From NCBI GenBank assembly GCA_964566925.1, contig CAZMIZ010000001.1:7248-71247 (forward strand): 64,000 nt of DNA, in the 5' to 3' direction. Positions 44,077 to 46,380 of the stretch are shown one piece after another. The stretch is from an uncultured Gammaproteobacteria bacterium. Its GTDB lineage: Bacteria; Patescibacteriota; Microgenomatia; PFEM01; DATLAM01. Made by a program: the position numbers and the translations under genes. The notes beneath the pieces were generated by a model. The model was given only the letters and a program-made list of their open reading frames with translations. It had not been told where the DNA came from and did no database searches. The stretch's first letter is position 1. The number at the start of each line of letters is the position of its first letter.

Positions 44077-45102
44077 CTAACTTTTCTTCCTTGGCAACTC
44101 CAATTTTCCTGCTTTTGCCTCTTTCCAAATTTCTCTTTCAAGTTGTTTCGTCACTTTGGGGTGTTCTTGGAGAAAAATTTTAGCGGCTTCCCGACCTTGA
44201 CCAAGCATGGTTTTGCCAAATTTAAAGAAAGCACCCGATTTCTCCACGGCGCCTAGATCAACCGCTAAATCCAAAATATCGCCTGTTTTAGAAATTCCGC
44301 CCACGTTCATAATGTCAAATTCGGCCACCCTAAAGGGAGGAGCCACCTTATTTTTAATCACTCGAGCGCGATGACGAGAGCCGATAGCGGTGTCACCATC
44401 TTTTAAAGTTCCTATTTTCCTCAGATCAATCCTGACTGAAGAATAAAATTTTAAAGCTAAACCACCTGGCGTAGTTTCCGGATTGCCAAACATTACCCCG
44501 ATTTTGTGACGAATTTGATTGGTAAAAATCACCACTGTTTTTGATTTAGAAATGGCCGCCGCTAATTTCCTCAAAGCTTGAGACATCAGTCTTGCCTGAA
44601 CTCCAATCATGGCGTCACCCATCTCTCCTTCAATTTCCGCCCGAGGCACTAGAGCGGCTACCGAATCAATGGCAATCACGTCCACAGCCCCAGAACGAAC
44701 TAGAGTCTCCACAATCTCTAATGCCTGTTCGCCGGTATCCGGTTGAGAAATTAAAAGATCATCAAGGTTGACCCCAATTGATTCCGCCCGAGCTGGGTCT
44801 AAAGCGTGTTCGGCATCAACAAAAGCCGCCACTCCCCCTATTTTCTGGGCTTCGGCAATAATATGAAGGGCTAAAGTTGTTTTTCCTGAAGCTTCGGGAC
44901 CATAGACTTCCACTACCCGGCCGCGGGGCAAGCCTCCCACGCCCAAGGCAATATCTAGGCCTAGACTGCCAGTGGGGATAACATCAACTTTCTTCACTTC
45001 TCCTTTTCCTCCCAGCTTCATAATCGCCCCTTTACCGTATTGTTTTTCGATCTGTTCCATCGCCATTTTAACGGCGGAAAGCTTTTTCTTATCTTTAGTC
45101 AT
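44077..45102 (-). CDS. recA: Recombinase RecA
   Basis: Walker [10 protein letters not shown] and canonical RecA core motifs throughout. Confidence 0.95.
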
Positions 45103-45148
45103 CGCGGTTCAATTTTGGCACAAAATTTGCTAAAATACAAGTGTGGTT

Positions 45149-45215
45149 CGGGGAGTAGTTTAGTGGTAGAATACGCGCCTGTCTGCCGACAGGCAGGCAT
45201 GGGGTGCGTGTGGCC
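45149..45215 (+). pseudogene. Truncated copy of the tRNA-Pro 5' portion (acceptor 5' strand, D arm, anticodon arm, start of the variable loop). It is interrupted by a 20-nt hairpin insert between tRNA positions 31/32 and lacks the T arm and 3' acceptor strand
   Basis: 45149-45178 and 45199-45215 are identical to 45453-45482 and 45483-45499 of the intact tRNA. The insert ctgtctgccgacaggcaggc folds into an 8-bp stem with a GACA (GNRA) tetraloop. Confidence 0.6.
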
Positions 45216-45221
45216 AACAAA

Positions 45222-45467
45222 ATGTGGTTAGTCTATCGCATAACAAATAAGCAGAAAGATTATTCTTATGTAGGGATAACACAAGGCACGGAAAAAAGAC
45301 TGCAAAAACATAACGAAGGGGCAACAAGATCAACAAAACCATATAGACCATTTAATAAGATAGAGGTCATAAAGGCTTGTCCGACTAGAAAAGAGGCACG
45401 ACACTGGGAAAAATATTATAAATCTGGAATCGGCAGAGAACAGCTAAAAACACGGGGAGTAGTTTAG
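45222..45467 (+). CDS. GIY-YIG nuclease-superfamily small protein (YhbQ/UPF0213-like)
   Basis: MWLVYRITNKQKDYSYVGITQGTEKRLQKHNEG is the GIY-(10)-YIG motif with the conserved R and H/N. The last 5 codons and the TAG stop overlap the 5' end of tRNA-Pro. The ORF track begins at GTG 45204; ATG 45222 is preferred. Confidence 0.7.
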   Translation: MWLVYRITNKQKDYSYVGITQGTEKRLQKHNEGATRSTKPYRPFNKIEVIKACPTRKEARHWEKYYKSGIGREQLKTRGVV

Positions 45468-45523
45468 TGGTAGAATACGCGCATGGGGTGCGTGTGGCCC
45501 GAGTTCAATTCTCGGCTCCCCGA
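45453..45523 (+). tRNA. tRNA-Pro (anticodon GGG)
   Basis: Cloverleaf fold: acceptor CGGGGAG/CTCCCCG; D stem GTTT/GAAT; anticodon stem CGCGC/GCGTG with loop ATGGGGT (U33, G37); variable loop TGGC; T stem CCGAG/CTCGG with loop TTCAATT; discriminator A. CCA is not encoded. Confidence 0.85.
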
Positions 45524-45594
45524 CTAAGAGATCTAAAAATTCCTTGCTTGTTATTATAAACATAAAACACCCGGGCGTGGGTAAATAGAATAGA

Positions 45595-46380
45595 GTGGCG
45601 TTTAAACTTATCTATCCGGCTGAACAATCAGGAAAACCGCTTGTTGAAGGCGAGCCAGTTTCACCACAAGATTATTGTGCAATTGAAACAGAGATCGTGT
45701 CTTTAGACGGAATTTCCCGCACACAATACGTCTTACAAGAAAAACGCGGTGGACTCTTCGTTAAGATTAATGCAACCCCTCTTCCTTTAGCGACAGCTAA
45801 GACAAGGTTCTTGGATGTTCTATTTCCAGAAAGAGAAATTTCCGAATTCGGCCATTCCGACCCTCTTAATGTCAGGTTAATGAATGGACGGTGGGTCTGT
45901 TTTGAAGGAAATCCTGAAGAAAGAACAATTTTTAGAAAATTGATCGAAGAACAGCTTGAAAAAGTATGTGACCCTGACGCTCTCCAAAAAAGGTATGGAT
46001 TTCGCTCCTTTAAAATTAAAGAGCTCGGCCCGGAAGACCAAAGATTGGAAGAATTAGTTGAAACTTTGAGAGATGATTGGGGTTCAAAAGACAAAGGTAC
46101 CCTGCCAAAAGCTAAATATTTGGAAACAATTTATGTTTTAAGGCTTGATGAAAACACCCTCCATCAACTCGCCTCCCAAGATTATGGGAAAGAAAAATTT
46201 TGGCTTGGAGTTTTATTCCTTACTAAGTTAAACCCAAGAATCGTGGTCTTCGGTCCACCTGGCAGTTTTACCCTTACTGAAATAGCGTCTGCTGGAGTAG
46301 CCATGGGTGCACCTTTGGAAACTCCGGATGCAACTTTAATTACTCACGAAAGAAAAGAGGTCCAAAGAAAGTTGGCTTAA
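45595..46380 (+). CDS. Hypothetical protein (GTG start)
   Basis: 261-aa ORF immediately downstream of tRNA-Pro. No recognisable motif. Confidence 0.4.
   Translation: MAFKLIYPAEQSGKPLVEGEPVSPQDYCAIETEIVSLDGISRTQYVLQEKRGGLFVKINATPLPLATAKTRFLDVLFPEREISEFGHSDPLNVRLMNGRWVCFEGNPEERTIFRKLIEEQLEKVCDPDALQKRYGFRSFKIKELGPEDQRLEELVETLRDDWGSKDKGTLPKAKYLETIYVLRLDENTLHQLASQDYGKEKFWLGVLFLTKLNPRIVVFGPPGSFTLTEIASAGVAMGAPLETPDATLITHERKEVQRKLA

Follow-up and report, generated by a model that had tools for sequence, protein, structure and literature searches.

Beside the tRNA-Pro(GGG) gene of an uncultured bacterium we have found a cassette of about 304 base pairs (bp), which occupies positions 45149-45467 of the stretch analysed here (64,000 nucleotides (nt), or 64 kb, of contig CAZMIZ010000001.1 in assembly GCA_964566925.1; hereafter the window) and lies between the promoter of the tRNA gene and the tRNA itself. 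It is composed of a partial duplicate of this tRNA, which is split by a 20-bp palindrome, and of an open reading frame (ORF) for a GIY-YIG nuclease of 81 amino acids (aa). Our reading, to which we assign a probability of roughly 0.55, is that the cassette is a compact selfish mobile element spreading by nuclease-stimulated recombination, the tRNA-derived sequences serving as its homology arms and the palindrome as the cognate hairpin. It is one member of a large, apparently undescribed family within tRNA transcription units of many bacterial phyla, and our comparison establishes three inseparable parts for this family, namely the mini GIY-YIG nuclease, the spare copy of a tRNA and the palindrome, presumably cognate to the nuclease. 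No published description of the cassette was found in full-text literature, where subscription journals were mostly outside the scope of the search, so that a prior description is conceivable.

Empty sites in close relatives

The recA gene, a divergent neighbour of the cassette, served as the synteny anchor, and the window RecA was used to fetch the 80 closest metagenomic loci (loci are referred to by L numbers). In at least 20 relatives, whose recA is 68-81% identical to that of the window, a tRNA-Pro(GGG) gene lies divergently 50-200 nt upstream of recA without the family ORF or palindrome, and the relatives carry a single tRNA at this site. Against these empty sites there were two filled recA/tRNA-Pro sites, the window and the syntenic L003. 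According to the alignment, the order at the empty site, as in L121, is the recA start, TTCAAT-17 nt-TAAAAT, about 13 nt and the tRNA; in the window and L003 this promoter block is followed by the tRNA fragment, the palindrome, the ORF and the tRNA, and the window is longer than the empty site by 304 bp. Because the empty L121 is no more distant from the window than the filled L003 (88% and 86.5% identity, respectively, at the RecA N-terminus), the presence of the cassette is patchy.

A sequence-only reading of this DNA had proposed a mobile, homing-like cassette at a tRNA target and had suggested a search for related loci that lack it. On account of the cassette-free recA/tRNA-Pro loci in close relatives the cassette can be regarded as mobile by the test proposed there, and the recurrence at many tRNA genes and phyla described below agrees with this; the homing mechanism is what we infer from these patterns. 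The same reading had raised the concern of an assembly artefact, which we exclude because the same layout is found in independent metagenome assemblies and in isolate genomes.

A strict sigma-70 consensus scan did not call the promoter block, whose assignment is from conservation only: since the block is conserved upstream of tRNA-Pro in cassette-free relatives, it probably functions as the native tRNA promoter. The conserved placement of this block suggests that the cassette is positioned so that the tRNA promoter would transcribe it.

Recurrence at many tRNA genes and in many phyla

A word-indexed protein search gave six homologues with 57-81% identity, and all the contigs retrieved for them have the order 5' tRNA-Pro fragment, hairpin insert, anticodon loop with 3' stem, ORF and intact tRNA-Pro. 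The insert in these contigs reads CTG(Y)CTGCCG(R)CAGGCAGGC, and the tRNA sequences vary, each fragment matching its own neighbour. A scan of one genome per GTDB species gave 80 loci, with hosts in Bacteroidota, Ignavibacteria, many Patescibacteria, Planctomycetes, Chloroflexi and Margulisbacteria as well as various metagenome-assembled genomes, and the set for scripted analysis comprised 83 distinct loci with homologous ORFs. A tRNA on the same strand is present within 200 nt of the ORF at 73 of the 83 loci and one on the opposite strand at none, the background being 5 tRNAs in 199 kb lying more than 1 kb from the ORF. The partner tRNAs are of 10 identities: Pro, Leu, Arg, Asn, Gln, Lys, His, Glu, Cys and Met.

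Two layouts were distinguished. In class U, to which the window belongs, the fragment with the insert precedes the ORF and the intact tRNA follows it; in class D, the intact tRNA comes first, then the ORF and then the fragment with the insert. Tandem arrays of ORF, palindrome and fragment were found at eight loci (L007, L009, L012, L016, L024, L047, L067 and L077). In a neighbour-joining tree of 75 ORFs the clades follow tRNA identity and anticodon, with hosts of several phyla mixed within clades. An exhaustive profile search found 526 clusters (50% identity) at E (expectation value) <= 1e-10.

The palindrome leaves traces also in protein databases. A peptide encoded by it (CLPAGR, LPAGRQ or PACRQA) occurs in a mis-called terminal extension of 21 of the 156 family sequences examined; for the proteins P0002, P0003, P0040, P0048 and 17 others, gene callers run the ORF through the tRNA fragment and the palindrome, giving spurious N-terminal peptides such as MRACLPAGR or VAELVDLPAGRQA. 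Such peptides are a handy database marker of the cassette.

Two loci deserve separate mention. L148 (5409-5723), from a relative of the window organism, has a stand-alone GIY-YIG gene of the UPF0213 type after recX without tRNA or palindrome, so that in this clade ordinary relatives of host type exist beside the tRNA-linked family. The viral locus L116 (454-900; IMGVR_UViG_3300035537_000177) has a class U cassette whose downstream tRNA carries a long structured insertion starting from the anticodon loop. This insertion is possibly a group I intron, like those reported in tRNA genes of Patescibacteria, in which case two different selfish elements would reside on one tRNA.

The 20-bp palindrome

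The family consensus, read as the sequence between contiguous tRNA pieces, is a perfect 20-mer palindrome with CCTGCCTGCC and GGCAGGCAGG on the two sides of its centre, and it is present in almost all lineages. It lies within 250 nt of the ORF at 64 of the 83 loci; 34 copies equal the consensus exactly, most others differ by one or two transitions, and the sequence hardly changes although protein identity falls to about 40%. Control recA loci from related organisms, about 350 kb in total, contained no palindrome within 4 mismatches of the consensus; a looser pattern gave three matches, in L151 and L193. At L151 (989-1009), from a cassette-free relative, a hairpin resembling the palindrome (CCTGCCTCGCCGGCAGGCGGG) is located in A-rich intergenic DNA, and the 3.4 kb fetched contain no family ORF.

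The window insert is a stable hairpin, folding at -11.6 kcal/mol (z = -3.6), and occurs as a single copy in the 64 kb even when 3 mismatches are allowed, against an expectation of 0. A chance hairpin is ruled out by this single-copy count together with the recurrence in the family and the control loci. The hairpin noticed in the sequence-only reading is thus real, but its site needs correction, being between tRNA positions 29 and 30 in the family register with a boundary ambiguous by 1-2 nt, and its loop is not of the GNRA type described there, because the third base of GACA is C; the centre of the family consensus is CCGG. What the earlier reading missed is that a nearly invariant palindrome is common to the whole family; the insert is therefore part of the system and is neither a local oddity nor an intron. 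The identical window variant was found in L004, L017, L050 and L063, and its reverse complement in L010, L054 and L070.

Insertion is exact, with no duplication or loss, in the 50 copies that could be mapped to an adjacent intact tRNA, and most sites fall within a loop (D, anticodon or T) or at the border of loop and stem. Within an ORF clade the position does not vary: 21/22 for Arg, 29/30 for Pro, 15/16 or 65/66 for Leu, and 32/33 for the Maribacter Arg clade. At most class U loci the palindrome lies 12-50 nt before the ATG (at a few of them up to about 120 nt), and at most class D loci it lies 6-47 nt past the stop codon. Longer variants retain both ends and are extended in the centre by 8-21 bases (L016, L024, L039, L040 and L044), and distant ORF lineages have other GC-rich hairpins (L001, L041, L056, L062, L071, L073 and L080). 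In L001 (2805-3000; Dojkabacteria WJKM01000016.1) the spare copy is of tRNA-Pro(TGG), and its D loop is split not by the 20-bp palindrome but by three tandem hairpin units of about 52 nt (CCTGCCCGACTGAGG...CGTTCAGGCGGG). In L071 (1983-2430; Paucihalobacter ruber) four tandem 94-nt units stand 5' of an intact tRNA-Met and the ORF, each composed of tRNA-Met positions 1-37 and, after them, a hairpin of 15 nt, TCCGCCAAAGGCGGA; the array represents a different hairpin family, and its units lack ORFs.

The sequence variants show one recurrent pattern. The paired changes C5>T and G12>A (T5/A12) break the main palindrome and make a shifted one (CTGTC-TGCC-GACAG), and both orientations occur; in L033 (2414-2433) the further change C10>A makes a perfect palindrome of 14 bp, CTGTCTGCAGACAG. 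Both the T5/A12 variant and L033 fit a shifted palindrome CTGTCTG(C/-)CAGACAG. Covariation in the main palindrome register was uninformative, with one compensatory pair only (L079) and many single transitions to G.T.

The palindrome occurs also without the ORF. The exact 20-mer was found in viral contigs as 42 copies in 35 stretches, for which the chance expectation should be far below 1, as 4^20 is about 1.1e12. No ORF is near 41 of these 42 copies, the sole ORF-linked one being the class U cassette of L116. Among the solo copies is one in the viral locus L109 (2239-2330; IMGVR_UViG_3300033148_008720), where an otherwise complete tRNA-Met(CAT) has the exact palindrome in its variable region and ARAGORN calls a 92-nt tRNA, with no family ORF or second copy nearby; the palindrome might imitate a long variable arm here and leave the tRNA functional. 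The remaining solo viral copies are intergenic or lie within other repeats or hairpin loops. Second tRNA copies with the palindrome and without the ORF are present in L040 and L048. Multiple palindromes are found as three in a row in L017 and as pal-GATA-pal in L021, L029 and L031, where pal denotes the palindrome. L017 (2288-2450 and 2754-2793; Flavobacterium sp.) has seven copies in all, three directly abutting and with mixed sequence variants, which suggests repeated insertion at or beside an existing palindrome.

These properties raise a second explanation, which we rank after the homing model, with which it is compatible, and regard as possible rather than probable: a two-component, transposon-like system, similar in its logic to REP/RAYT or IS200/IS605, in which the palindrome would be the mobile unit, cut and pasted as a single-stranded DNA hairpin into loops of hairpin-forming DNA, and the GIY-YIG protein would mobilise it in trans, the tRNA duplication being secondary to repeated breaks. 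Precise insertion without target duplication, the preference for tRNA loops and loop-stem borders, the tandem and multiple copies, the solo copies in second tRNAs and viral contigs, and the near-invariance of the palindrome beside diverging proteins would all agree with such a system. However, GIY-YIG enzymes are hydrolytic nucleases, and we know of no strand-transfer or covalent-intermediate chemistry for them; moreover, there is a single palindrome in the 64-kb window and no REP-like dispersal there, the palindrome position is inherited within ORF clades instead of being scattered, and the constant fusion of ORF and tRNA is left unexplained by this system alone.

The tRNA-derived arms

Direct reading and a repeat finder agree that the upstream copy is an exact partial duplicate of tRNA-Pro positions 1-47 split by 20 nt, as the sequence-only reading had it: 45149-45178 equals 45453-45482 (30 identical nt) and 45199-45215 equals 45483-45499 (17 identical nt, or 19 nt when the shared GC is counted). 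The likeness to tRNA stops at 45215, which corresponds to tRNA position 47, so that neither a T arm nor a 3' acceptor strand is present in the copy. It was called by neither ARAGORN nor Rfam, in keeping with the earlier view that it cannot form a tRNA. The tRNA-Pro(GGG) at 45453-45523/4 is the sole tRNA in the window.

It is hardly conceivable that the interrupted copy is an intron-containing or split tRNA from which the 20-nt hairpin is removed at the RNA level. The insert is indeed precise and at a stem-loop border, and the viral tRNA-Met of L109 is otherwise intact with the palindrome in its variable loop, yet most copies in the family are truncated as in the window, an intact tRNA starts 238 nt past the end of the truncated copy, and an Rfam E-value scan of the whole split copy found tRNA only, with no intron or other RNA family, and no tRNA was called at the upstream copy itself.

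Over the family, each fragment shares 93-100% identity with the tRNA beside it and follows the host-specific differences of that tRNA (e.g. L002 versus the window), and the ORFs of different loci are saturated at silent sites. Because a neutral relic of such age would have diverged, either each insertion makes the fragments anew or gene conversion with the selected tRNA homogenises them. The identity gradient in the arms away from the palindrome is mild, the difference being about 3% and rising to 5-7%, and is partly forced by the mapping rule. At several loci the duplication takes in 9-12 nt of the tRNA leader and at others it stops at +1. A boundary fixed at tRNA +1, which would have hinted at an RNA-templated origin, is ruled out by the loci with the duplicated leader.

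The state of the fragments bears also on the view that the locus is a passive remnant, i.e., the scar of an ancient tandem duplication of the tRNA that was later interrupted by an unrelated gene, an alternative offered also in the sequence-only reading, or the attachment repeat of a deleted integrase-type island. Direct repeats of tRNA are a classic footprint of integrative elements, and the upstream copy is non-functional. We nevertheless consider this view very improbable: relatives have one tRNA at the site, the repeat is the 5' part of the tRNA whereas integrases use the 3' part, there is no integrase and the extra DNA amounts to just 304 bp, the same layout with the palindrome recurs at the 10 tRNA identities and in many phyla, and the fragments have not decayed despite the saturation of silent sites in the ORFs. 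The scar of an old duplication is thus set aside.

The nuclease

The product of the 81-aa ORF scores 59.4 bits with the Pfam GIY-YIG profile (PF01541), for which the cut-off is 22.6, and the match (E = 4.4e-16) covers residues 7-74 of the 87-aa frame. Residues Y5, Y16, G18, R26, H30, N31 and E63 are invariant in seven homologues and kept in an 82-sequence profile, and by analogy to I-TevI and UvrC we take Y5, Y16, R26, H30 and E63 to be the probable catalytic residues. The AlphaFold2 model (predicted local distance difference test score, pLDDT, 84.5) has the order beta-beta-alpha-alpha-beta-alpha-alpha, and its best Foldseek matches are UPF0213 BH0048 (1zg2), the I-TevI catalytic domain (1ln0) and Slx1, with query-normalised TM-scores (TMq) of 0.66-0.68 and E-values that are weak (>= 6e-3) because the domain is small. 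A profile search of the PDB gave BH0048 (1zg2, 1.4e-4), EF2693 (1ywl, 2.1e-4) and Slx1 (7cq2, 6e-4). Pfam, the PDB profile search, the model and the fold search thus bear out the assignment of the sequence-only reading, a GIY-YIG protein similar to YhbQ/UPF0213, and the predicted SLX1-like fold fits a structure-specific enzyme. Among PHROGs the match was PHROG 314, "homing endonuclease" (1.7e-5); NCBIfam gave no family at E <= 0.01 for the window protein, and a tblastn search of 50,697 phage records with it gave no match. Because the GIY-YIG domain spans essentially the entire 81 aa, the protein has no DNA-binding module.

Between the window ORF and that of L003, the ratio of nonsynonymous to synonymous substitution rates (dN/dS) is 0.07 at dS 1.4, and the ORF is, to judge from these rates, kept by purifying selection. 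Such strong selection, together with the strict co-orientation, the geometry of co-transcription, the fragments kept identical to the tRNA and the stop codon placed inside the tRNA at many loci, where processing by RNase P would compete with translation, could also be expected of a domesticated module beneficial to the host, in which the nuclease and the palindrome-bearing tRNA fragment would serve the tRNA operon by processing or regulating the co-transcript, or would help to repair tRNA genes, control their copy number or ward off tRNA-integrating elements. We think this unlikely, because the closest relatives do without the cassette at the same site, its distribution is patchy across phyla with a copy number that varies with the tandem arrays, PADLOC gives a weak HEase match only (E = 0.0011) and no convincing defence match, and the spare copies are truncated and incapable of making tRNA.

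Details of the window locus

The coordinates of the features are collected in Table 1. The GIY-YIG gene is the sole ORF between the two repeats, and no obvious Shine-Dalgarno sequence was seen before it. Its overlap with the tRNA, pointed out in the sequence-only reading, is real and involves the last four codons plus the TAG (45453-45467, equal to tRNA positions 1-15), not five codons. A stop codon inside the tRNA is seen at many class U loci, often as T8-A9-G10. The tRNA would be made by processing of the ORF-tRNA co-transcript, and a cut by RNase P at tRNA +1 would leave a stop-less mRNA, possibly a built-in brake on nuclease expression.

Table 1. Features of the tRNA-Pro(GGG) locus in the window
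Feature	Position	Strand	Remarks
recA	44077..45102	-	Divergent neighbour outside the cassette; Pfam RecA E = 1.6e-130; synteny anchor for empty sites
Probable native tRNA promoter, TTCAAT-17 nt-TGnTAAAAT	45108..45136	+	Between recA start and first tRNA copy; conservation-based
Arm A, exact copy of tRNA-Pro(GGG) positions 1-29	45149..45177	+	Acceptor 5' strand, D arm, anticodon-stem 5' strand; 29/29 identity
Palindrome (pal), CCTGTCTGCCGACAGGCAGG, variant of family consensus CCTGCCTGCCGGCAGGCAGG	45178..45197		Between tRNA positions 29 and 30, without target duplication
Arm B, exact copy of tRNA-Pro positions 30-47	45198..45215	+	Anticodon loop, 3' anticodon-stem strand, variable region, first T-stem base; 18/18 identity
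81-aa GIY-YIG nuclease gene, catalytic domain only	45222..45467	+	Pfam PF01541; ATG start, TAG stop
Intact tRNA-Pro(GGG), functional copy	45453..45524	+	ARAGORN; Rfam tRNA 58 bits; 3' of the ORF

A candidate target-site duplication around A-pal-B (AAGTGTGGTT at 45139 and AAATGTGGTT at 45220) is absent in L002-L004 and was taken as chance. Directly past the tRNA, at 45595-46380, there is a 261-aa ORF with no Pfam or NCBIfam match and a single homologue (46% identity) among 5.8 billion clustered proteins; its use as a synteny anchor was dropped, as that homologue sits on a 1.4-kb contig without tRNA.

Proposed mechanism

In the mechanism that we propose, the ORF would be transcribed from the tRNA promoter and the tRNA would still be released by co-transcript processing. 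The nuclease would break cognate tRNA genes, or the DNA beside them, or their hairpin-forming arms, as may be expected from its GIY-YIG/SLX1-like fold and the precedent of T4 SegB. Repair would copy the cassette, with the tRNA-derived sequences flanking the ORF as portable homology arms, and this copying would regenerate one intact tRNA, leave one disrupted copy and be able to yield tandem arrays. Copying through homology arms is suggested by the existence of both layouts (A-pal-B-ORF-tRNA and tRNA-ORF-A'-pal-B-C), the tandem arrays, the ORF clades tracking tRNA identity and the arms matching the neighbour tRNA. To form class U, a break at a clade-specific position of a naive tRNA would lead to invasion of the palindrome-adjacent arm, and copying would then proceed across the ORF and reach into the intact tRNA; the mirror process would form class D, and re-invasion would form the tandem arrays. 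Targeting defined by the arms would account for the ORF clades following tRNA identity. The palindrome may be the cognate hairpin of the nuclease or a dimer-symmetric site for binding or cleavage, a role to which its near-invariance against diverging proteins, the other hairpins in distant lineages and the solo copies point; it would mark and inactivate the spare copy and split the direct repeat, and it could move alone.

Several points weigh against this homing reading, every mechanistic step of which rests on inference. The palindrome disrupts the spare tRNA copy, but next to the cassette stands an intact tRNA whose sequence at the insertion point agrees with that of the empty-site tRNAs (e.g. 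L126 and L136), and because it is thus identical to naive targets, simple immunity by target disruption would not explain how the carrier escapes self-cleavage. Mere disruption of a site would not need a conserved palindrome sequence either. The 81-aa protein is without a DNA-binding domain to read a long site, and the duplication boundary is not fixed among loci. Repair from a diverged donor predicts chimeric tRNAs or arms, yet both arms match the local tRNA, so that transfers would have to occur only among close relatives or additional gene conversion would be needed. In addition, curated phage and plasmid collections gave no protein matches.

A more tentative proposal, which we regard as possible rather than probable, is a new class of mobile element, in which a catalytic-domain-only GIY-YIG enzyme would owe its specificity to a nucleic-acid partner and not to a DNA-binding protein domain. 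This partner, the conserved 20-nt hairpin between tRNA-derived sequences, could work at the DNA level, as a hairpin or cruciform placed in the loops of tRNA arms, or at the RNA level, as an A-pal-B leader pairing with the tRNA gene. The hairpin itself would then be a 20-bp element of separate mobility, able to enter loops of structured genes with precision in bacterial phyla and their viruses alike.

Comparison with known systems

The nearest precedent is SegB of phage T4, a GIY-YIG homing endonuclease in a tRNA cluster, whose 27-bp site includes the conserved TpsiC stem-loop motif and which drives its own gene's inheritance along with that of the flanking tRNA genes (PMC2330249); SegB reportedly promotes segmental amplification of tRNA loci as well (PMC13096335), which the tandem arrays of the cassette would parallel. 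Like members of the Seg family, the cassette has a free-standing, non-intron GIY-YIG gene among tRNA genes, and like free-standing homing genes in general it is polymorphic for presence and absence at a conserved site. Unlike Seg, its protein has 81 aa with the catalytic domain only and no DNA-binding domain for a long asymmetric site, it is chromosomal and distributed in many bacterial phyla, not in T-even phages, and it is always paired with a partial tRNA duplicate bearing a conserved 20-bp palindrome. We file the locus by analogy as a free-standing GIY-YIG element of the homing type with putative cleavage activity, outside the Seg family, since the DNA-binding domain of that family is missing.

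The UPF0213/YhbQ proteins and the SLX1 domain, which are closest in sequence and fold, share the single small GIY-YIG domain; typical UPF0213 genes, however, are stand-alone host genes without tRNA or palindrome (e.g. L148), and Slx1 needs Slx4 and a RING domain. REP/RAYT and IS200/IS605 elements resemble the cassette in having a short GC-rich palindromic hairpin beside a presumed enzyme gene, no target duplication and gene-less hairpin copies. They differ in that the cassette enzyme is a GIY-YIG hydrolase and not an HUH/Y1 transposase (Pfam finds GIY-YIG only), its hairpin is 20 bp and perfect, its gene is embedded in a duplicated tRNA, and there is no dispersal in the window. Integrase islands and prophages are likewise targeted to tRNA genes, with a direct tRNA repeat that regenerates an intact tRNA, but the cassette has no tyrosine or serine integrase, its repeat is tRNA positions 1-47 (5' and not 3') and interrupted by a palindrome, and its length is about 300 bp. 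Finally, Rickettsia palindromic elements and mitochondrial GC clusters are short palindromes inserted precisely into genes, including RNA genes, and their mobilising activity is unknown or debated. The palindrome of the cassette differs from them in being shorter (20 bp), cross-phylum and linked to a candidate enzyme gene.

Significance

If the proposed reading is true, the cassette, with about 300 bp, one 81-aa nuclease and a 20-bp palindrome, would rank with the smallest known units of autonomous selfish DNA, and it would have colonised the tRNA operons of Bacteroidota, Patescibacteria, Ignavibacteria, Planctomycetes and other phyla. It would account for many annotations of "GIY-YIG nuclease family protein", for tRNA pseudogene fragments and for mis-called N-terminal extensions. 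There could also be practical interest in the tRNA arms, as homology that is portable, and in the palindrome, as a compact module for recognition. The family would offer a natural system for asking whether a nuclease without a DNA-binding domain finds its target by structure, palindrome or homology arms, and it would provide a candidate enzyme for the long-standing puzzle of short palindromes precisely inserted into genes.

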